A stretch of DNA of 64,000 nucleotides from an uncultured Bdellovibrionales bacterium (GTDB taxonomy: Bacteria > Patescibacteriota > Minisyncoccia > Moranbacterales > UBA1568): positions 3,627 to 67,626 of the forward strand of contig CAYTED010000004.1 in assembly GCA_964436855.1 (NCBI GenBank), written 5' to 3'. The notes beneath the pieces are model-generated. The model was not told where the DNA came from and ran no database searches. It saw only the letters and a list, made by a program, of their open reading frames with translations. The position numbers were made by a program, and so were the translations under genes. Positions 3,925-63,074 of the stretch are shown here, in pieces (the first letter of the stretch is position 1; the number at the start of each line of letters is the position of its first letter).

Positions 3925-5697
3925 TTACTTGCGACGTATTTTTTCCGTCACCCAAAACTCCCCAAAGTATTTCCCAAACAAGAGCCGTGTCTGCGAATCA
4001 AGCGCCGGAAACGCCGAAAGAAACGCGATCAATGGCGAGATAATCCATTGGAGAAACATCAAGATATATCGCGACCAGTGATACTTTTCCGGTTTCGGCG
4101 GAAGCGACACCATCGAAAGCGGCACCGAAACCGCCATACCCATCATCGCAAGCGTCATCAATGTTTGCGTGACAAGCGGAAGGTTGTGCGCAAGAAGCCC
4201 CTCACGAAATGCCTCTCCCCCGAGAACAAGCGGCAACCATCCGAGAAACGCAAGAATAAATGAAGTCGTCGCCCATGAGTGATGTCCCTCGATCATTTCA
4301 AAAGTAACGCGGATCTTCACACGAAGCGGAACATTCGGATTCGGCCACACCGCGCGAAGCGTAACCGGCCAGTTCTCGATTCCATACGCCCAACGCCGAA
4401 GCTGCTTGTACTGATTCTTGATCGTCTTCCAGTACGTCTCCGCAAGCACCGCATCGAGCGACACCGGAAGATGAATCGGCTTCACCTCATAATCCCCATT
4501 GAAGTATGAGAGGCATTTCCAATAAATCACCGAGTCTTCACTGATCATATTGAGCGGCCAAAAACCAACCTTCACTAACGTATCAAATGATTCCGAGTGC
4601 GAAGAAAACGTTACCATTTCCCGACGAGTACTCTGATAAAGATGCCAAAACGACGACCCTGTCACCGCGAGCCGAACAAACGCGTTCGTATCCCACAAGT
4701 TATTGTGATACACCGGGATCGGCTGATACGCGCGCCGGTGTCGCTTCGGATCAGTGATAAACGCGTAGGAGAGCGCAGCAAAATATTCCGGATGCGCCAC
4801 CGTATCGCAATCAAAATTCGAAAAAATAACCCGCTTGTAATCAATCTTCCGTTCATCGAAATACGCCATCAGGTATCGCGCGGCAAACGCCGCATTGGAC
4901 GCCTTGCACTTCATCTCGTTTGCCGCGACGATATGCGTCGTTACGATAAAATCACGGAACTTCCCCGCAAATGTGTTTGTAAGATATTCCACTTTCGGAA
5001 TACGCGTCATCGGATTTTCTCGCTCTTCCGTCGCGAGCACTACAATCATTTGTTCTTTGGGAAAGTTCGTTTCAAGAAGCGATCGGATAGCCGGCTCAAT
5101 AATTTCAGCCGACTCATTTGCCGTCGGAAGAAGAACGACATGAATCACATCTCGCCAGTCAAGTATTTCTTTCTCGATCGGAACAAGCGATTCCACTTCT
5201 TCGAGGTATCGTTTGGTTTTTACGATCGATCGACGAACGATACAACGCTCCCGTAAATGAAAAAACGGAAGTTCTCGAAGCGCATTTCGATATCCGTCGA
5301 TACGTTCCTGTAAGAGTTTCGCATACACGTTTGGATGAACAATATTCTGACATCGCTCCCACCAATCAATCTTCTTTCCCTCGCGAAGCATAAAATGCCC
5401 CTTGAGCGAATAGTACGAAATAAATATCGTCCGATAAATCCAATAGATATCAAAAAGAATAATAAAAACGGCCGCCCATACCGGCTTCAAAAAAGAAAGG
5501 AGAAGCATTCCAAGGACGGTCGCCCACGAAAGCATTCCCGGAATCATTTCGAGCGTTCTTTGCGCCAGTCTCCCCCACTTTTCCGTTGTTTTCGGGTCAG
5601 GAAAATGAAAATTCGGATCCATAATATTCAGCTTTAGAATACCGCGTATCGTACCGCAAATCCACCGATCTGTCCATGCAGCAACCATATTCAGCAA
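3925..5697 (-). CDS. Membrane-embedded family-2 glycosyltransferase, processive beta-glycan (cellulose-synthase-like) type
   Basis: DCD (DxD) motif, SED (TED-like) motif and QLRRW (QxxRW) motif. N-terminal and multiple C-terminal TM helices. True start may be the internal Met near 5622. Confidence 0.75.
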   Translation of the reverse strand: MLNMVAAWTDRWICGTIRGILKLNIMDPNFHFPDPKTTEKWGRLAQRTLEMIPGMLSWATVLGMLLLSFLKPVWAAVFIILFDIYWIYRTIFISYYSLKGHFMLREGKKIDWWERCQNIVHPNVYAKLLQERIDGYRNALRELPFFHLRERCIVRRSIVKTKRYLEEVESLVPIEKEILDWRDVIHVVLLPTANESAEIIEPAIRSLLETNFPKEQMIVVLATEERENPMTRIPKVEYLTNTFAGKFRDFIVTTHIVAANEMKCKASNAAFAARYLMAYFDERKIDYKRVIFSNFDCDTVAHPEYFAALSYAFITDPKRHRRAYQPIPVYHNNLWDTNAFVRLAVTGSSFWHLYQSTRREMVTFSSHSESFDTLVKVGFWPLNMISEDSVIYWKCLSYFNGDYEVKPIHLPVSLDAVLAETYWKTIKNQYKQLRRWAYGIENWPVTLRAVWPNPNVPLRVKIRVTFEMIEGHHSWATTSFILAFLGWLPLVLGGEAFREGLLAHNLPLVTQTLMTLAMMGMAVSVPLSMVSLPPKPEKYHWSRYILMFLQWIISPLIAFLSAFPALDSQTRLLFGKYFGEFWVTEKIRRK

Positions 5698-19281: not shown

Positions 19282-20880
<1,599 letters not shown>

Positions 20881-21171
20881 TAAAGGTGATTGGAATGGAA
20901 AATCATTATGCACCTCCATAATGATTCTTTCCGATCGAAATCGAAAAGTTCCGAAAGAAGATTCTTAGCAAACCACCCGTCTTTTCTCTCCGGTAAACCG
21001 GAAACAAGAGAACGTTTTTCGTTTGCCAAGCATCTTCAAAGAATAAACGAAGATTCACTTTTTCTCCCGAAGGAGAAAATGAAGACTGACCGCAAAAAAT
21101 TGCGATCGTACTGACTTCTTTTTTTAAGAAAACAAAGCAATTGAGAAAATGAATTCCTCTATCGCCAAGCC

Positions 21172-21200
21172 ATTATAGCAGCCTAAAAAACCTTGTCAAC
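21172..21200 (-). promoter_or_regulatory. Sigma70-type promoter for the 16S rRNA: TTGACA, 17-nt spacer, TATAAT
   Basis: Minus strand reads TTGACAaggttttttaggctgcTATAAT. It sits about 300 nt upstream of the 16S 5' end. Confidence 0.6.
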
Positions 21201-22013: not shown

Positions 22014-23504
22014 TTGGCTATGCATCCGAAAATCGGGCGACGTCTTTTTTTCTGGGTATTGGTTTTTTGTTTTCTCGCAACTTCCGTCGCGGTTCTTTTT
22101 TTTACTTTTGGGTACTCTTTTGATACGAAAAGAAAAATCTTCGTACACACCGGATCATTTACTCTGAAAACCGTCCCTCTTGATACGATAGATATTCGGA
22201 TCGATGGCGAGGAAGTCTCCAAACGAAAACTCAATATACTGAACAACGCATATCATGTCTCGGGACAAATGCCCGGAGAGCATTTTATCGAAATAACCGC
22301 ACCGGGATACTCAACCTGGAAAAAAAAGGCGGTCATCGAAAGCGGAAAATCAACCGAGTTCTGGAATATCAATCTGGTAGCGACACACTACACGACATAC
22401 TCCTTTCCGGAAACAAAAAACGTACTCAAAATTTTTCCATCACCAAAAGAAAATCTTCTCGCCATTTTACAGAAAGAAAATACGACTCTCCTCATCAAAA
22501 CATTTGACTCACAACAAGGTGTTATTTCCACCGTCGCACAACTCGAACAAGCAGATTTTCCCGAATCTTTCGAGGAAAATCTCGAGTGGTCACCCGACAC
22601 TACGCTCCTCACGCTTCCCATTTTCTCAAATGGAACCCGAGAATATATTCTTGTGAATAGAGAAAACAATACCGTCGAAAACATCCTCTCTCGATCGGGC
22701 CTGTCGGATATGCGTTTCGCGCGGTGGGATGCACGTCGCAACGGAATCCTCTACTTTTTATCGGGATCAAATTTGTTCGAATGGGACGCCACAGACAAAA
22801 CAGCCTCCCCCCGATTGATCGCTGAACAAATCGACGGCTACGACATTTCCCATCAATATCTCTACACTCTCGACCTCTCAAACGGACTTGTCAAACGATT
22901 TCGATCAGGCACTTCCGTCAATCAATCAGAATTCATTTCCCTCGAACCCATACAAACCGCTCCTGACTCACGCTACGACCTCACCGTTTATGACGAAGAT
23001 CGGATCGCAATTCGCGATCGAAAAACAGGCGAACTCTTTATTCACAATATCGGTGAAAAAGATCACTTCGAAAGAAAGGAGGCCGGGGTGCGTGGCATCC
23101 AATTCTCAAATGACGGCAAAAAACTTCTCTACTTTACCGATCGAGAAATATTCGTATACTTCCTTCGAAAGTGGGATACGCAACCGACACGAAGAGAGGG
23201 AGAAACTCTTCAAATCGCTCGTTTTTCAGAACCGATACGATTTGTCCAGTGGGCAGAAGATTACGAGCACGTTCTCTTTTCGCTCAATACCGAAATCAAA
23301 ACTATCGAGCTTGATGGACGCGATCGACGCATTGCAGAAACGGCAATGACGCTCCATAAAGAGCCACAGCAGTTCTTTGCAAACTTTTCCTCAAACGGCA
23401 TATTCTTGATAGAACAAGATTCCTCCATGCCCCTTTCATATTTTTCTTTCCCGGAAAATATCGATCAACCCGCCATAGAAATACCAAAAGAAAATACCCT
23501 ATGA
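22014..23504 (+). CDS. Membrane-anchored protein with a PEGA-like domain and probable beta-propeller-like extracytoplasmic region
   Basis: N-terminal TM (LFFWVLVFCFLATSVAVLFF). PEGA-like segment IDIRIDGEEVSKRKLNILNNAYHVSGQMPGEHFIEITAPGYSTWKKKAVIESGKSTEFWNINL. Confidence 0.5.
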   Translation: MAMHPKIGRRLFFWVLVFCFLATSVAVLFFTFGYSFDTKRKIFVHTGSFTLKTVPLDTIDIRIDGEEVSKRKLNILNNAYHVSGQMPGEHFIEITAPGYSTWKKKAVIESGKSTEFWNINLVATHYTTYSFPETKNVLKIFPSPKENLLAILQKENTTLLIKTFDSQQGVISTVAQLEQADFPESFEENLEWSPDTTLLTLPIFSNGTREYILVNRENNTVENILSRSGLSDMRFARWDARRNGILYFLSGSNLFEWDATDKTASPRLIAEQIDGYDISHQYLYTLDLSNGLVKRFRSGTSVNQSEFISLEPIQTAPDSRYDLTVYDEDRIAIRDRKTGELFIHNIGEKDHFERKEAGVRGIQFSNDGKKLLYFTDREIFVYFLRKWDTQPTRREGETLQIARFSEPIRFVQWAEDYEHVLFSLNTEIKTIELDGRDRRIAETAMTLHKEPQQFFANFSSNGIFLIEQDSSMPLSYFSFPENIDQPAIEIPKENTL

Positions 23505-50726: not shown

Positions 50727-53700
50727 TTACGGAGTTACTTCCTTCCAATTAAAGTCCCGTATCTGGCTTGCCGAGCAGCTTGCATTTACCGAGCTGCCAA
50801 AGAGACCATTGCAGTTCCATACGTAGGTTTGTCCCGATCGGGAGAAGTTTGCAACAGCGCCACCCGAACAGAGATCGGAACTTGAACTTGAAAGCGCCTC
50901 GAAAGAACCTCCGTTTGCTGATCCGCAAGATCCATTTTCAGAGTTGTGCGTGTATTGGGCGGTAACGGTTTCATTCGTATTGATCGTTTGAGTACAGGTG
51001 GTACCCGCCGGACTATCGCAGCCGGCAAAGCTCTGGAAGGTATAGGGGCCACCGGCGGTCGTGGTGATGGTACGTACTTGTCCGGAAGGGATGTTGGATT
51101 CCGAGATGAGGCCTCCTGTTTTTGTGGTGCTCGTCGCATCAATCCAAGAAACGGTTGCAGCGACACTCGGACAATTAAGGCAGCTTGTCTGTCCGGTAAG
51201 AGTGTATTTGTTCTGGATGGCAGAACAGGCATTCGGGAGAGTGCTTATCCCTCCTCCTGAACCTGAACAGCCCCAGGTAAAGCCAGTACTGGTTCCAGTG
51301 AGAATGCCTCCGGTGAGGGTTCCTGTAGCACAAAGTCCGGGAGAAGAAGGTGAGAGCGTATCAAGGGAAAGCCCGTTCGCAGAACCGCAACTCCCATTTA
51401 TAACGGGAGCGATTACCGCTTGAGCGGTGGACCATGTGGAGAATCCCCCCTTACTGTCTTCAGTGCGAACACGGAAGGTGTAAGTATTAGCTGTAGACCA
51501 GAGATAGGGTGGATTACTCAAAGTCTGACCAGTGCCGGATGCGACGTATCCCGGGCTGGGAGCATAGTAGTCGACAATCGTGTCATTGTTCCAGTCAATG
51601 GCGTAGCGAATTGAGTCATTGTCTGGGTCAGTTCCTTGAAAGGTAAAGGGGTAGCTTGTATTGGTGTTGCCACTGAAGGGTTGCGGGGTGATGGTGGGAG
51701 GGGCGGGATTGTTGTTGGTGGAGATGGCGGTCAAGTTGAAGGTGATGGTTTGGGGCGGAATAATAATTGGATCATGATCCGGCCTATCCCATCCCCATGG
51801 GTAGCTTAATCTCGTATCTAAAGAATAGAAGTAGGGGTTATCCCCCAACCAGCAGTCATCTGCATACAAACACCCGTCATTTATATTATTTCCGGCACTA
51901 TCAAACCAATACCCATATCCCATATTTTGAGAACGAGCATAATAAGTACCAAGAAACCTGTTAAAATAGTATAGCCAAAACTTCGCTCGAGTTTGAGGAA
52001 ATTGAACTGAAACAGATATAATGCCAGGTCCGGTTACGGTACAATTGGCTCCCATACAAGCAACGGGTCCGGTAAAATTGAGTTGTGGAGTAGGTGGATG
52101 AACAGAAAAATAATACCAACCAAAATGAGAATCGTCTCTTGGTGGAGCATCTGCATTTTGAGTCCAGTATCCACAGGGAGTATCCCACCCGGATCCGGTA
52201 ATCCACCACTGAATATCACAATTTTGAAGGCCTTTTGGAATAACAGAAAATGTACTACCGACCGGAATGCTATCACCATCATTCAAAAGGGCCGCACCCT
52301 GTTGAATGGATGCGCCGTACAAAACCGAAGCCTGCCCATTCTCGTATGTCGGATCAATGCTTCCCTGCCTTGGAAATCCCAATGGTAGCGATGTCCACGT
52401 CACACTCTTCGCCTCCACTCCTTTCCCCAGAAGTAATCCCGATGAAAGCACGAGAAGGAAAAGCGTCATTTTCATTCCGGTGTTCATCGGAGTCGTCGGT
52501 CCGTTTCCATCCTGATTCTTGTGGTGTCTCCAGATGAGGAAAAGAATTCCTCCGATCGAGAGAAGAGCGATCAGTCCAGAGAATATGGTTTTGTTGTTTG
52601 ATGCTTTGCTCATTGTTCCCTTTCCGTCGTTTTGCGCCCCGGGACACATCTTCGGATCAATATCCTTGCAACGATAGGTTTGGGTGACGGTATCCACCAC
52701 TTTCCCATTGTTCTTGAGGAGAGTGGTCAAATTCACATTGCCGGTTGTTTTCGTCGGAGTGAAAGACTGTTTCACACCCATCATCGCACCAGTAATGGCC
52801 CCTTCGTAGGTATAGGTGTGGATCGTTTCTCCGGTATCGGCATCGGTGAGAGAAAGGGTGATTTCGTTCCCGTCGATCTTCGGGAGATTGGTGCTGTGCA
52901 CACAGGAGAAGAGAGCGTTTTCTTTTCCTTTCTCAATTGGGAAGCTTGTGATGCTTGGGAAGTTCAGGCGCATCTCGGGAATACCCTCTCGAACAAAGCG
53001 AATATTGAGTATCGATGAGGCATCCTGATCCTTTGCTTCAACAAGAAGATAAGAGACCGAACCCTTTGCTTGGGTAGTGGTGTAGGAGAGAGACTTTGTT
53101 TCTTTTCCTTTGAGCGTGACGAGCTCGGTTTTTTGATCAAGTTTGTTGTCTTGACGAAGTCCGTCCCAATTAAAGAGGGTCCAGATGAGTGCGATTGTTT
53201 TTGGTTCACTCGAAGGGTTTATGAGGGTTACTTCTGTCGTCACGGGTTCATCCTTCGTAAAGTGTGGTGGGAATGCGGAAAAGTGGTAGTCTTTCTTGTT
53301 GAGAGTGACGGTGTGTTTGTTGAAGGTTACTTGGTTTTGATTCGATGAAGTAACCTTGAAGCCTGCTTTGTTTCCCGTCACATCATCGGTGAAGGTAAGC
53401 CCCAGGAGATTAAAGCGGTCATTCGTAACAAAGAAGAAATCCGCCTCGTAATCGCCGCCGGAAAGCGTATTGGGAACATCGTAAGAAAACGAGAAATCTT
53501 TCTCGCTTTTTGCGGGGAGAGCGATATCCTTTCCCGCCTCAAAGAAGGCAACCATCGGGTAGCCGTTCTGGTGAATCTTAGAGTCTTCCCCTTCTTTCTT
53601 AAAGATCTTCACATAAACGGAACCGCTGATGATTGGGTAGGGATTGTCATTCTTCAATTTTCCGGTAAAGGTAAGAGGTACGCCAGGAATGGTTTGTGTC

Positions 53701-53978
53701 AACGTTGGCGAGAGATCGACTTGAATGGAACCAAAGTGATAATCATCAAAGCAGTTACTCGTCCCCTCCGGAAGAATGGCTCCTCCGGCGGAAGGTGCGG
53801 GGAGGGCGGTCCGGATCTTCTCTTTTTCTTCGTCGGTAAGAGTGGTTTGGTCTTTTTGCAGGAGAACTCTTACTTCCGGGGAGAGATTCGTGGGTGTTGG
53901 TTTGGAAATCTGCGCAGAGACAGGAAGAGTGAAAACGAAAACACAAAGAAACGCGAATAGAAAAACTTTTTTATTCAT
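50727..53978 (-). CDS. Large secreted/surface protein (about 1080 aa) with signal peptide, an internal hydrophobic hairpin, and repeated Cys-containing C-terminal modules
   Basis: Signal peptide MNKKVFLFAFLCVFVFTLPVSAQI. Mid-protein TM IFSGLIALLSIGGILFLIW followed by a second signal-like segment MKMTLFLLVLSSGLLLGKGVEA. Two approximately 60-aa repeats CGSANG..LC..G...W.C.G......CSA. Confidence 0.6.
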   Translation of the reverse strand: MNKKVFLFAFLCVFVFTLPVSAQISKPTPTNLSPEVRVLLQKDQTTLTDEEKEKIRTALPAPSAGGAILPEGTSNCFDDYHFGSIQVDLSPTLTQTIPGVPLTFTGKLKNDNPYPIISGSVYVKIFKKEGEDSKIHQNGYPMVAFFEAGKDIALPAKSEKDFSFSYDVPNTLSGGDYEADFFFVTNDRFNLLGLTFTDDVTGNKAGFKVTSSNQNQVTFNKHTVTLNKKDYHFSAFPPHFTKDEPVTTEVTLINPSSEPKTIALIWTLFNWDGLRQDNKLDQKTELVTLKGKETKSLSYTTTQAKGSVSYLLVEAKDQDASSILNIRFVREGIPEMRLNFPSITSFPIEKGKENALFSCVHSTNLPKIDGNEITLSLTDADTGETIHTYTYEGAITGAMMGVKQSFTPTKTTGNVNLTTLLKNNGKVVDTVTQTYRCKDIDPKMCPGAQNDGKGTMSKASNNKTIFSGLIALLSIGGILFLIWRHHKNQDGNGPTTPMNTGMKMTLFLLVLSSGLLLGKGVEAKSVTWTSLPLGFPRQGSIDPTYENGQASVLYGASIQQGAALLNDGDSIPVGSTFSVIPKGLQNCDIQWWITGSGWDTPCGYWTQNADAPPRDDSHFGWYYFSVHPPTPQLNFTGPVACMGANCTVTGPGIISVSVQFPQTRAKFWLYYFNRFLGTYYARSQNMGYGYWFDSAGNNINDGCLYADDCWLGDNPYFYSLDTRLSYPWGWDRPDHDPIIIPPQTITFNLTAISTNNNPAPPTITPQPFSGNTNTSYPFTFQGTDPDNDSIRYAIDWNNDTIVDYYAPSPGYVASGTGQTLSNPPYLWSTANTYTFRVRTEDSKGGFSTWSTAQAVIAPVINGSCGSANGLSLDTLSPSSPGLCATGTLTGGILTGTSTGFTWGCSGSGGGISTLPNACSAIQNKYTLTGQTSCLNCPSVAATVSWIDATSTTKTGGLISESNIPSGQVRTITTTAGGPYTFQSFAGCDSPAGTTCTQTINTNETVTAQYTHNSENGSCGSANGGSFEALSSSSSDLCSGGAVANFSRSGQTYVWNCNGLFGSSVNASCSASQIRDFNWKEVTP

Positions 53979-54382
53979 AGTTCTTTTATTATTCTTTTTT
54001 TTACTGTCCATTGACTCCATAATACTCCTCCCTAAGACATTTATGCAAGCCATTTTGGCCCAAATAAAAAACAAAGACGACCTCGCCACTGTTTTTCAAA
54101 CATTTCAGTTCCGCCAAAATCAATCTGTACACAATTCTCCACGACCGCTTATTTTTGCGTACAACGCTCAAGACAACAGTATCAAATCGTGTTCAGCTTC
54201 TATTGGTTCCCGTTACGCCGGAAGTTTTTGTTGATTAGGTTGTATCAATTTGAGACGATCGTTATGTGTTGATATGGTGTTTTTGAAAAAAGATTGAAAA
54301 AGAAGGAAACACAAAAACAGCCCCGGCGGAATGTCGGGACTGTTATTTCATTTCGTCTCACGCCACATTCTTCACCTCTCGT

Positions 54383-59842: not shown

Positions 59843-60208
59843 TTATACAAATTCAATGATTGCCATTCTTGCCGCATCTGATTTTCGGGCCTCAAGCTTT
59901 ATTACTCGCGTATACCCGCTTGAACGATCGGAAAACCGATTTGAAAAATCTCCGGAAAGTTTCCGTACCGCCACCTTCGGAAGTCGCGATTCAAGATCCC
60001 GAAGGACGGAGAGTTTTTTCGACTCATCAGCCTTCAGACGCTTTGCCTTTCCAATAAGAGGGTCAATCAGACGCTTCAATTCCTTCGCCTTCGCTTCGGT
60101 CGTCTTGATCTTTTCTTTCAAAATCAAGCTTCCAAGAAGCGTCTTCAGGAGCGCCTTTCGAACCCGTCTCACTCGATTGAATTTTCTTCCAACACTTCGA
60201 TGATTCAT
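59843..60208 (-). CDS. rplQ: 50S ribosomal protein L17
   Basis: Sequence and position. Confidence 0.9.
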   Translation of the reverse strand: MNHRSVGRKFNRVRRVRKALLKTLLGSLILKEKIKTTEAKAKELKRLIDPLIGKAKRLKADESKKLSVLRDLESRLPKVAVRKLSGDFSNRFSDRSSGYTRVIKLEARKSDAARMAIIEFV

Positions 60209-60244
60209 ACGACTTTCACAGACAATCCCGTTTCGATATTCTGA

Positions 60245-60985
60245 TTATGCTTCCGACTTCTTCGCCTTCTTTTTTGGTTGAGCAGCTTCTTCCGCCACTT
60301 CCTTGGTTTCCATGGCAAGCGTCGAGAATTGTTCGATCAAAATCGAAATCGACTTCGCAAACGCTTCTTCCGGAGAAATACTGCCATCGGTAACCACCTC
60401 AAGCGTAATCTTGTCATAGTCCGTTCGTTTTCCGACACGCATATTTTCCACTTCGAAATTCACGCGCTTGACCGGCGTATAAATCGCATCAATCGCAATC
60501 ATGCCGATTTCCTTCTCGCGCTCCTGCTGTTCGACAGTGACGTATCCGATGCCGGACGCGACATCAATCTCCATTTCCAATTCCGCCTTCTTATCCGAAA
60601 GCGTCGCAATTACCTGTTCCGGATTTACCACCTCAACACCAGAAACAGTTTTAATGTCACCCGCTTTCACAACTCCCTCACCCTTTCCCTTAAGTGAGAG
60701 TCGCACCGGACCTTCTTCGGTCATACGAAAACGAACTTGTTTTAAGTTGAGAATGATATGCACCGCATCCTCCATTACTCCCGGAAGAGTCGTAAACTCA
60801 TGAGATACTCCCTTCATCTTTACAGATACTACGGCCGCGCCCTCAAGCGAAGACAAAAGAATTCGCCGAATCGCGTTTCCAAGTGTCGTCCCATATCCCG
60901 GATAACATCCAAGGATTTCAAACTTCCCGTGAGACGGAGCGATTTCCGTATATTTTGGTGCTTGCGGAAGACTGATTTTTTGCAT
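60245..60985 (-). CDS. rpoA: DNA-directed RNA polymerase alpha subunit, N-terminal domain only (no alpha-CTD)
   Basis: 246 aa. The alpha-NTD dimerisation/assembly domain is recognisable. The protein ends in a Lys/Glu-rich tail without the helix-hairpin-helix CTD. rplQ follows 36 nt later. Confidence 0.85.
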   Translation of the reverse strand: MQKISLPQAPKYTEIAPSHGKFEILGCYPGYGTTLGNAIRRILLSSLEGAAVVSVKMKGVSHEFTTLPGVMEDAVHIILNLKQVRFRMTEEGPVRLSLKGKGEGVVKAGDIKTVSGVEVVNPEQVIATLSDKKAELEMEIDVASGIGYVTVEQQEREKEIGMIAIDAIYTPVKRVNFEVENMRVGKRTDYDKITLEVVTDGSISPEEAFAKSISILIEQFSTLAMETKEVAEEAAQPKKKAKKSEA

Positions 60986-61064: not shown

Positions 61065-61694
61065 TTATTTTGAATAGTATTCGACAACGAGTTGCGGGTC
61101 TACATTGACTCCGATATCTGAACGACTCGGCAACCCGACTACTTTCGCTTCAAGTTTTTCCAAATCGAGTGAAAGCCATTCGGGAACATCCTTTTTATTC
61201 TTCAAAATATCCGCCTGCACTTTCAAGTAATTTTTTTCCTGCTTTGCTCCTTTGAGCGAAATCACATCACCCACCTTGACGGCCATGGAGGGGATATTCA
61301 TTCGGCGGCCATTCAATATAAACCACTTGTGTCCAACCAGTTGTCTTGCCTGACTGCGGGAATTCGCAAAACCAAGTCGATAAACGACATTGTCGAGTCT
61401 TCGTTCAAGCCGCGCAAGCAACAAATCTCCAGTGATACCTTCGCCTTTCAGCGCCTCGCCGTAATGCTTGCGGAATTGCCGTTCCAAAACGCCGTAAATC
61501 CGCTTGATCTTTTGCTTCATCGCGAGCTGTCGTCCGAATTCGGAAACGTTTCGGGCACCGGCCTGTCCGTGCTGTCCGGGCGCATACGCACGGCGAACCA
61601 TTGCGCATTTCGGCCCAATACAACGATCGCCTTTCAAAAAAAGCTTCTCTCCGGCGCGACGGCACAGTACACACTTATCGGTAATTTTTGCCAT
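61065..61694 (-). CDS. rpsD: 30S ribosomal protein S4 (zinc-finger form)
   Basis: CVLCRR...C..C N-terminus and S4 domain. Confidence 0.9.
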   Translation of the reverse strand: MAKITDKCVLCRRAGEKLFLKGDRCIGPKCAMVRRAYAPGQHGQAGARNVSEFGRQLAMKQKIKRIYGVLERQFRKHYGEALKGEGITGDLLLARLERRLDNVVYRLGFANSRSQARQLVGHKWFILNGRRMNIPSMAVKVGDVISLKGAKQEKNYLKVQADILKNKKDVPEWLSLDLEKLEAKVVGLPSRSDIGVNVDPQLVVEYYSK

Positions 61695-61711
61695 AGAAAA
61701 ATAATTTGCAA

Positions 61712-62188
61712 TCAAATTCTTCGGGGACGACGCGGGCGACATCCGTTGTGCGGAATCGGCGTCATATCCTTAATACTCAAAATGGTAAAACCGTTATTCG
61801 CAAGTCCTCGGATCGCCGCTTCACGACCGCTTCCAACACCCTTCACAAATACATCCACTTCCTGAAGTCCGTATTTTTTAACTTTCTCGGAAACATCCGC
61901 TACCACTTGCGTCGCTGCATACGGAGTCGATTTTTTCGCCCCCTTGAAACCAAGATGTCCGGAGCTCGACCACGCAAGCGATGCGCCATTCGCATCAGAA
62001 AGCGTGATGATCGTATTGTTGTAGGTGCACTGAATCGTCGCGCGCCCCTTCAAGACCTGCTTCTTTGATTTCTTGCGTTTCTTCGCAGTCGTCCCTTCGG
62101 AGGTGGAAGCCTCTTCTTGAACTACTCCGGTCGAAATATCTTCGGGAGCCTGTGGCGCTTCTTCGGTTTTCTTCACTTCATCGGTCAT
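61712..62188 (-). CDS. rpsK: 30S ribosomal protein S11 with N-terminal extension
   Basis: Sequence and position. Confidence 0.9.
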   Translation of the reverse strand: MTDEVKKTEEAPQAPEDISTGVVQEEASTSEGTTAKKRKKSKKQVLKGRATIQCTYNNTIITLSDANGASLAWSSSGHLGFKGAKKSTPYAATQVVADVSEKVKKYGLQEVDVFVKGVGSGREAAIRGLANNGFTILSIKDMTPIPHNGCRPRRPRRI

Positions 62189-62232: not shown

Positions 62233-62622
62233 TTATGTCTTGCTATCGGCTTTCTTTCGACCGCTACCCATAGTCTTTCGAACATTGCCGCGTACGGTTC
62301 GGGTATTTGTTTTTGTTCGTTGCCCTCGAACCGGGAGTCCTCGCTGATGACGCGACCCTCGATACGATCCGATTTCCTTCAGACGGCGAATATTCATCTT
62401 CACTTCATGCCGCAGTTCACCCTCCACCCGATAGTTTTTTTCAATTTCTTCACGAAGACGGTTGGCATCTTTTTCCGCAAGATCTTTCGTGCGAGTATTC
62501 GGATCAATCCCGAGCTTCACAAGAATTTTTTGACTCAAAGGAAGACCGATTCCGTAAAGGTACGGGAGCGCCGCTTCGATTCTTTTATTGTCAGGGAGGT
62601 TTACACCGGCGATTCTCAACAT
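62233..62622 (-). CDS. rpsM: 30S ribosomal protein S13
   Basis: Sequence and position. Confidence 0.9.
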
Positions 62623-62729: not shown

Positions 62730-62843
62730 TTACCCTTGTCGTTGCTTATGTTTCGGGTTCGCGCAAATTACGTACAGCTTCCGCTGCCGTCGAACAATTT
62801 TGCAATGAGCACAAATTTTCTTGATAGATGCACGAACTTTCAT
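62730..62843 (-). CDS. rpmJ: 50S ribosomal protein L36 (37 aa). It is absent from the supplied ORF track
   Basis: [37 protein letters not shown]. Confidence 0.85.
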
Positions 62844-62852
62844 AAAAATTCT

Positions 62853-63074
62853 CTACCTTAACCGCTGAACGATTCTTCCTTTTGTAAGATCGTACGGACT
62901 CATTTCAATAATCACCCGATCCCCGGGAAGCAAACGGATATAGTGCACGCGCATTTTTCCGGAGATATGACCGAGTACTTCGTGGCCACTGTCAAGTTTG
63001 ACACGAAATGTTGCACCCGGGTGGCTCTCAATCACTTCTCCTTCCATGCGAATAACATCCTTTTTTTCTCCCAT
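62853..63074 (-). CDS. infA: Translation initiation factor IF-1
   Basis: S1-like OB fold. Confidence 0.9.

Follow-up and report, generated by a model that had tools for sequence, protein, structure and literature searches.

An RNA polymerase alpha subunit of Candidatus Moranbacteria that ends in a lysine-rich tail at the place of its C-terminal domain

To our knowledge, the C-terminal domain (CTD) of the RNA polymerase (RNAP) alpha subunit is commonly regarded as a device of all bacteria for the recognition of UP elements and for class I and class II activation. Escherichia coli alpha that is reduced to its N-terminal domain (NTD), alpha(1-235), supports basal sigma-dependent transcription and makes no UP-element or class I activator contacts. 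The roles of the alpha-CTD are summarised in PMC8321222: the NTD is enough to form the dimer, to assemble the core and to transcribe at a basal level, and the CTD is needed for binding of the UP element (see also PMC12641261) and for many activators. Here we describe an alpha subunit that has no CTD at all. It is encoded by the rpoA gene at 60245..60985 on the minus strand of a 64-kb stretch of DNA (64,000 nucleotides of contig CAYTED010000004.1, assembly GCA_964436855.1), which was analysed over its whole length and is called the window in the following. The protein consists of an NTD and a tail of 14-21 residues that contains a patch of lysines.

Alpha subunits that end at the same place are known from E. 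coli, namely alpha(1-235) and alpha(1-256) as cited in PMC8321222 (Igarashi & Ishihama 1991; Hayward et al. 1991). Whereas these are laboratory constructs without a Lys patch, the window alpha is a natural and conserved state of whole lineages and does carry such a patch; it is the natural counterpart of the alpha(1-235) construct. Natural loss of the CTD with retention of the NTD has been described for the endosymbionts Hodgkinia and Tremblaya (PMC8321222), and the same paper cites a CTD-less RpoA of Euglena chloroplasts. The window alpha shares with these proteins the natural loss of the CTD in a reduced genome, but its NTD is not eroded, the loss spans many species-level lineages, and a conserved basic tip is found instead of the CTD. 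With its NTD kept, its CTD absent and this state common to its relatives, it belongs to the class of naturally CTD-less RpoA of reduced genomes. For Parcubacteria, one sentence of PMC8321222 (2021) states that CTD loss 'is also present in Parcubacteria'. The reference given for this sentence (Nelson & Stegen 2015) says nothing of RNA polymerase in its text, and rpoA appears in it just as an entry among the core genes of a supplementary table. A perspective on Patescibacteria from 2024 is likewise silent on RNA polymerase. Our literature search on rpoA or the alpha-CTD in Moranbacteria, Patescibacteria, the candidate phyla radiation (CPR) and Parcubacteria yielded nothing relevant except PMC8321222, and the search on AT-hooks in CPR bacteria yielded no paper. 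That a bacterium of the CPR has lost the CTD is not entirely without precedent, and the window belongs to a large group in which the domain is missing. What appears to have gone undescribed is a variant of the alpha architecture in which a conserved basic tip systematically takes the place of the CTD, with AT-hook cores in sister lineages.

A first-pass annotation of this DNA had held that the 246-aa RpoA lacks the entire CTD and ends in a charged tail right after the NTD. Pfam, NCBIfam and alignment to solved structures all agree with the first statement. Both NTD families match over their full length, PF01000 (insert) with 113.5 bits and PF01193 (dimerisation) with 80.4 bits, and the 246-aa protein shows no Pfam match to PF03118, the helix-hairpin-helix family of the alpha-CTD. 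The NCBIfam rpoA models align to it over positions ~3-247 of their ~300-340 only. The equivalog cut-offs of TIGR02027 (264.1 against 227.8) and NF003519 (285.4 against 277) are passed; six other PRK05182 sub-models stay under their cut-off because just ~225-250 of 298-344 model positions are matched. Alignment to the alpha chains of solved RNAPs, which the first-pass annotation had proposed as a check in the form of a comparison with full-length alpha, covers the NTD only, residues 10-232 corresponding to E. coli alpha 14-239. The AlphaFold2 prediction, based on 42 homologues, has a predicted local distance difference test score (pLDDT) of ~90 for residues 11-225, its last helix runs from 205 to 233, and for residues 235-246, which are predicted to be disordered, the score lies below 50.

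The charged tail is likewise seen: the NTD extends to ~232 and a lysine-rich tail follows. Residues 1-232 (60290..60985, minus strand) comprise the NTD for dimerisation and for assembly with beta and beta', as delimited with PF01193, PF01000 and AlphaFold2. Residues 233-246 (the EEAAQPKKKAKKSEA region, 60248..60289, minus strand) make up the C-terminal tail, which is predicted to be disordered and occupies the place of the linker and the CTD; the TAA stop codon lies at 60245..60247. The complete sequence beyond the NTD is ETKEVAEEAAQPKKKAKKSEA. Within it, a Lys patch can be read at K238-K243 (KKKAKK; 60257..60274, minus strand) with P237 just before it, the form that the consensus of the clade, E-[P/E]-KKxKKxxKKK-EE, takes in the window.

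The remainder of the protein is that of an ordinary bacterial alpha. It is 65-87% identical to its aligned homologues and contains the motif GNAIRRILLSS, of which R40 and R41 are invariant across the 42 aligned homologues. R41 aligns with what we take to be R45 of E. coli, the beta-binding arginine in GNALRRILLSS. As this motif is intact, the alpha should build a working core enzyme without the canonical CTD contacts. A two-domain assembly platform without CTD is also known from archaeal Rpo3 (D) and eukaryotic Rpb3/AC40. Assignment to the Rpo3/Rpb3 type was nonetheless rejected: NF001988 (subunit D) reaches 25.8 bits against a cut-off of 153 (E = 7e-6) and matches only the last ~50 residues, a weak dimerisation-domain signal, while sequence and operon are bacterial and the CTD-less state is derived. 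Its NTD, its curated score, its place in the operon and its conserved residues all mark the open reading frame (ORF) as a bona fide bacterial RpoA; what it lacks is the CTD. It is the genuine and sole local rpoA of a Candidatus Moranbacteria genome, which belongs to an uncultured, ultra-small bacterium, and its NTD is intact.

The same architecture is widespread among relatives, which answers a question raised by the first-pass annotation. The closest species loci in the Genome Taxonomy Database (GTDB) belong to metagenome-assembled genomes (MAGs) of Candidatus Moranbacteria/Moraniibacteriota (Patescibacteria/CPR) at 65-78% identity. Among the best 120 protein homologues, 97 measure 245-292 aa and are without PF03118, against 23 of at least 300 aa that have it. 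At the level of loci (80 GTDB species loci plus the window) the CTD is absent in 48 and fused in 33 of the 81. A second search, seeded with a Parcubacteria alpha (P0213), gave 105 CTD-less proteins among 120 homologues. The CTD is also absent from the 50%-identity cluster representatives in 62 of the 150 nearest clusters, although about a dozen of those are evident frameshift junk; the named members of the nearest CTD-less clusters are Patescibacteria and Parcubacteria groups. CTD loss is fixed across a large part of the Moranbacteria and in many other Patescibacteria.

Parsimony on a neighbour-joining tree of BLOSUM distances, with E. coli as outgroup, places a CTD-present state at the root and requires 5 state changes. 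The CTD-less state is therefore a secondary loss and not an ancestral feature common to archaea. In a bootstrap of 200 replicates the window's clade of 245-253-aa proteins receives 90% support, and a single clade of all CTD-less Moranbacteria 14%. Because the deep topology of the Moranbacteria is poorly supported, one loss and two losses within this group are indistinguishable. Overall, we are highly confident that the window alpha is real, that its CTD-less state is lineage-wide and that this state arose secondarily.

The homologue collection contains some further peculiarities. Among the 80 species loci, many GTDB representative MAGs, binchicken TPA assemblies named 'uncultured Bdellovibrionales bacterium' or 'uncultured Candidatus Saccharibacteria', and one MAG named 'Candidatus Fimivivens sp.' carry a Patescibacteria-like rpoA; identity to the window rpoA is 53-78% for these oddly titled MAGs and 61-78% for those with the 'Bdellovibrionales' and 'Fimivivens' titles. 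Such record titles are thus unreliable for taxonomy. Two proteins hold two diverged alpha NTDs each in one polypeptide, P0124 (526 aa) in the order NTD-NTD-CTD and P0127 (664 aa) in the order NTD-CTD-NTD-CTD, and could be alpha dimers joined by a covalent link. An exact tandem duplication, P0122 (569 aa), is probably an assembly artefact.

Short alphas can also result from a frameshift, a stop codon due to sequencing error or an assembly break in a normal rpoA, and in general terms there is reason for caution, as several of the 'CTD-less' cluster representatives have Arg/Ser/Cys-rich junk tails typical of frameshifts. For the window gene we consider the chance of such an artefact negligible. 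The exact 246-aa protein with the same neighbours is present in three independent Logan assemblies (SRR12229868, SRR30303844 and SRR31893880), and in all three the DNA of tail, stop codon, 36-nt spacer and rplQ start is identical, which rules out a frameshift, a gap in the assembly and a wrong gene call. A CTD profile was built from 23 CTD-bearing relatives and the E. coli CTD, the latter as a probe. Run against the six-frame translation of the whole window it finds nothing (best E = 5.3, i.e. noise), whereas it gives 46-107 bits on the CTDs of relatives. Moreover, merely 36 nt precede rplQ, and dozens of species show the same architecture. A CTD remnant between rpoA and rplQ was considered as well and rejected: the spacer is 3-88 nt long (median 25) in the 47 CTD-less loci with an adjoining rplQ and has a median of 24 in CTD-bearing loci, so no CTD pseudogene is left. 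The first-pass annotation had stated that rplQ starts 36 nt downstream with no split CTD gene nearby, which both the coordinates and the six-frame scan confirm; the frameshift or assembly gap that it had named as a possible objection is not seen. The function of the CTD might alternatively be provided in trans, either by an alpha-CTD gene on its own or by another full-length rpoA elsewhere in the genome, outside the window, and this would speak against the tail as its substitute. Our reading covers 64 kb of the genome, and solved structures show two alpha paralogues for Francisella (6wmp). In addition, one Moranbacteria contig suggests that split states can arise, at least transiently: JBBINP010000055.1, from a Moraniibacteriota MAG, has an in-frame TAG at 2578-2580, within the acidic linker that joins an intact NTD to an equally intact CTD (90 bits). 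This TAG is either a sequencing error, which the coverage of 2.7x allows for, or a snapshot of an NTD-only alpha arising by nonsense mutation in the linker. On the other hand, no free-standing CTD was found in the window, in 80 flanking loci or in 9 metagenome loci, and no CTD in any frame in the ~12-kb flanks of 47 CTD-less loci. When metagenome contigs were queried with a narrow CTD alignment, 9 of 9 matches were fused to an NTD. We know of no means by which an untethered CTD would stay on RNAP. Provision in trans is accordingly judged very improbable.

More information about the place of the lost domain comes from a comparison of 122 distinct CTD-less tails of the Moranbacteria type with 56 linkers of CTD-bearing relatives. 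With a median of 35 aa, the tails are built from an acidic Glu/Ala/Val linker (mean net charge -5), a basic patch and then a few acidic residues. At least five Lys or Arg residues within 10 positions occur in 120 of the 122 tails, with the consensus E-[P/E]-KKxKKxxKKK. The pattern KKx1-3KK is present in 109 of them, against 3 of the 56 equally acidic linkers of CTD-bearing relatives; PKK is found in 52 tails and KK[AVST][AVST]KK in 69. Within the window, 5 of 78 non-overlapping ORFs have a C-terminal Lys patch: RpoA, one unassigned ORF and three ribosomal proteins that by eye we take to be L23, S12 and S9, of which only S9 has a Pfam-backed call. Judged by these patterns, it looks as if an acidic linker and a Lys patch consistently stand in for the CTD, rather than the CTD having simply been deleted.

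Other Patescibacteria carry a different tip. A [P/K]KKRGRPKK sequence, typically ~5 residues from the C-terminus, was found in 42 of the 105 CTD-less alphas from the search seeded with the Parcubacteria protein. R-G-R-P flanked by Lys or Arg is the defining core of an AT-hook. The GRP core in these 42 tails appears almost always as KKRGRPKK, and one protein carries two copies of it. The linker that precedes the motif covers roughly 20-95 residues and varies so freely in length and sequence that it is unalignable. That KKRGRPKK is kept in proteins whose NTDs are just 44-62% identical to P0213 could hardly be accounted for unless the motif is under selection. The corresponding rpoA genes occupy the same operon, with rplQ as the next gene, and recur in independent assemblies. 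Including the alphas without any basic tip that are discussed below, the states at this position make up a series of CTD, AT-hook, Lys patch and nothing.

What might the tail do? With the CTD absent, the canonical alpha-CTD contacts cannot work through the window RpoA. The claim of the first-pass annotation that promoter architecture and regulation are simplified is supported in part only, since the conserved basic tip looks more like a minimal substitute for the DNA contact than like plain loss. We tentatively propose, as the best of the readings considered and one that has about as much to be said for it as against it, that a minimal basic tail may functionally replace the contact of the CTD with upstream DNA while activator docking is lost. 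The flexible acidic linker would have outlasted the CTD, and at its tip a short basic stretch would repeatedly have become fixed, as a Lys patch in Moranbacteria (here PKKKAKK) and as a KKRGRPKK AT-hook core in other Patescibacteria. This tip would contact the minor groove or the backbone upstream of the -35 element with low specificity. The minimal DNA-anchoring role of the CTD would be retained in this way and its activator-docking surface would be gone. Somewhat more hesitantly, we consider it possible that a minor-groove reader of a few residues on the old linker replaced the alpha-CTD across a large part of the Patescibacteria, maybe more than once, with the Lys patch in Moranbacteria and KKRGRPKK elsewhere.

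Several properties of known motifs are compatible with this proposal. The alpha-CTD is said to contact the UP element in the minor groove, as the title of work by Ross in 2001 indicates. AT-hooks and Lys motifs of the SPKK/PKK type bind the minor groove of A/T-rich DNA. It is because A/T-rich UP-element DNA, contacted in the minor groove, is the natural target of the CTD that the tip is proposed to keep a minimal upstream-DNA contact. CRP/FNR-type activators with both domains are reported to be absent from the CPR clade (PMC12531629), which fits the loss of activator docking. Lost docking would in turn fit the small regulator repertoire of reduced genomes. For the attachment of such a motif to RNAP there is a precedent in actinobacteria, where the AT-hook of WhiB7 contacts A/T-rich DNA beside the -35 element. 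The Wbl proteins WhiB1 and WhiB7 are RNAP-bound, and their C-terminal AT-hook or basic tail is described as a DNA-binding motif (PMC6954389). They can serve as a working model for the alpha tail, since in both cases a short C-terminal basic or AT-hook motif is attached to the holoenzyme. Wbl proteins are, however, separate Fe-S proteins located on sigma region 4, whereas the alpha tip is part of a subunit and is present in two copies per enzyme; there is no homology between them. The SPKK/PKK tails of histone H1 and the PAKK/KAAK tails of mycobacterial HupB/MDP1 show low-specificity binding that prefers A/T-rich DNA. Compared by sequence, they resemble the alpha tails in composition and short repeats, but the alpha patch is much shorter, being a single patch of 6-10 residues with acidic flanks.

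A number of observations weigh against a replacement of this kind. The acidic linker would repel DNA. The GRP core is absent from the window tail (QPKKKAKKSEA) and from all 122 tails of the Moranbacteria type, which are by definition not AT-hooks, and even in two of the relatives the Pfam AT_hook model (PF02178, 13 residues) gives 13.1 and 12.5 bits, under its cut-off of 17.4. Lys/Glu-rich low-complexity extensions occur elsewhere in the genome, for instance at the N-terminus of S11. A basic tip is furthermore not obligatory, as ~20 of the 105 CTD-less alphas have an acidic tail only or no tail, such as a 227-aa protein of Uhrbacteria. Promoters do not provide a convincing signal either. At intergenic promoter-like sites with at least 10 of 12 consensus matches in 81 sequences, neither the A/T content nor the A/T tracts upstream of the -35 element set CTD-less loci convincingly apart from those with a CTD. 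The A/T fraction at ~-60..-39 was 0.587 against 0.573 in the control for CTD-less loci (n=88) and 0.624 against 0.615 for CTD-bearing loci (n=49); for A/T tracts the values were 0.53 against 0.40 and 0.47 against 0.45, respectively. Both comparisons are confounded by base composition, the intergenic A+T content averaging 0.55 in CTD-less and 0.64 in CTD-bearing loci (L001-L080 plus the window). In this sample CTD loss thus correlates with higher GC, as a correlation only. The sole clear promoter of the window, at 21172..21199 on the minus strand, is a perfect sigma-70 promoter with extended -10 (TTGACA-16 nt-TGcTATAAT, 12/12 matches) located ~290 nt upstream of the 16S rRNA gene (19284..20884, minus strand). 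The ~14 nt directly upstream of its -35 element are G-rich (GGGGGAGATAGGAGGG), with A- and T-tracts further upstream, and this too does not favour a reader of A/T-rich DNA.

Much of this would also be expected under plain reductive loss, in which the CTD was shed during streamlining with no UP elements or activators left to serve, and the Glu/Lys tail is a tolerated remnant or an aid to solubility or charge that contacts no nucleic acid. The alphas without a basic patch, the flat promoter test and the similar Glu/Lys extension of S11 all agree with it, as do the reduced genomes of Patescibacteria, the reported absence of CRP/FNR-type activators (PMC12531629) and the loss of the CTD in insect endosymbionts (PMC8321222). 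Harder to reconcile with plain loss is the conservation of the tip: the basic patch persists in nearly all Moranbacteria-type tails despite drift of the linker and is nearly absent from CTD-bearing linkers, and KKRGRPKK has been kept at the C-terminus in the 42 sequences with diverged NTDs. We therefore rate plain loss as unlikely, yet as the most serious competitor. The basic tip may also have been kept for another target, i.e. nascent RNA or rRNA (for example as a link to the ribosome), an acidic protein partner, or its own acidic linker, on which it would fold as an electrostatic switch. Comparable Lys patches in the window sit on RNA-binding ribosomal proteins, rpoA lies within a ribosomal-protein operon, and the layout of acidic linker and basic tip permits intramolecular pairing. 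Nevertheless, the RGRP core of related lineages is known above all for binding DNA in the minor groove, the tip occupies the very site at which the DNA-binding CTD was attached, and no candidate partner emerged, so that a target other than upstream DNA seems improbable.

The genomic surroundings of rpoA are conserved. The gene is placed between rpsD and rplQ in the cluster infA-rpmJ-rpsM-rpsK-rpsD-rpoA-rplQ-rplM-rpsI, and all genes given here are on the minus strand. The cluster starts with infA (IF-1, 62853..63074; a 73-aa PF01176 gene call in locus L081), followed by rpmJ (L36, 37 aa, 62730..62843), which was recognised by eye from its sequence and its place between infA and rpsM, with a PF00444 gene at the same place in L084. 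Next are rpsM (S13, 62233..62622; PF00416 gene call in the identical locus L081), rpsK (S11, 61712..62188; PF00411) and, directly upstream of rpoA, rpsD (S4, 61065..61742; PF00163 and PF01479). The long reading of rpsD shares 31 nt with rpsK, and the true start of rpsD may therefore be an internal Met (MAKITDK...). S11 has an N-terminal extension of ~45 aa with the make-up of the alpha tails, an acidic stretch and then KKRKKSKK. Downstream of rpoA, the 36-nt spacer (60209..60244, minus strand, from ORF coordinates and sequence) is too short for a CTD remnant and is followed by rplQ (L17, 59843..60208; PF01196). As 36 nt equal 12 codons, rpoA and rplQ are in one reading frame (60206..60247). 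Read-through of the TAA would join alpha to L17, but there is no sign of such a fusion.

Elsewhere in the window, the 19 kb downstream of the 16S rRNA gene contain no 23S rRNA gene, which means that the two do not lie side by side in this DNA. Three long ORFs have no Pfam match at E <= 1e-5, namely 50727..54089 (minus strand, 1120 aa), 3925..5697 (minus strand, 590 aa) and 22014..23504 (plus strand, 496 aa). In the stretch of 50-54 kb the GC skew is locally reversed, with +0.04 to +0.09 against about -0.15 elsewhere.

If the CTD-less state is as widespread as it appears, a sizeable share of one of the largest radiations of bacteria works without an alpha-CTD, and models of promoter strength and regulation derived from E. 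coli and Bacillus would not transfer to it. Annotation, completeness and pseudogene checks should then not flag a Patescibacteria RpoA of 245-290 aa as truncated. The lineages with a CTD, an AT-hook, a Lys patch or nothing would form a natural experiment on the contribution of upstream DNA contacts, and the Lys-patch and AT-hook tips would hint at the minimal requirement of the CTD's role on DNA. Should the tip indeed read the minor groove, the RNAP of these bacteria would have two minimal 'UP-element hooks' as part of the enzyme itself and would lack a domain on which activators dock. This would amount to a distinct bacterial architecture of promoter recognition, in which a motif of 8 residues instead of a folded domain senses A/T-rich upstream DNA.

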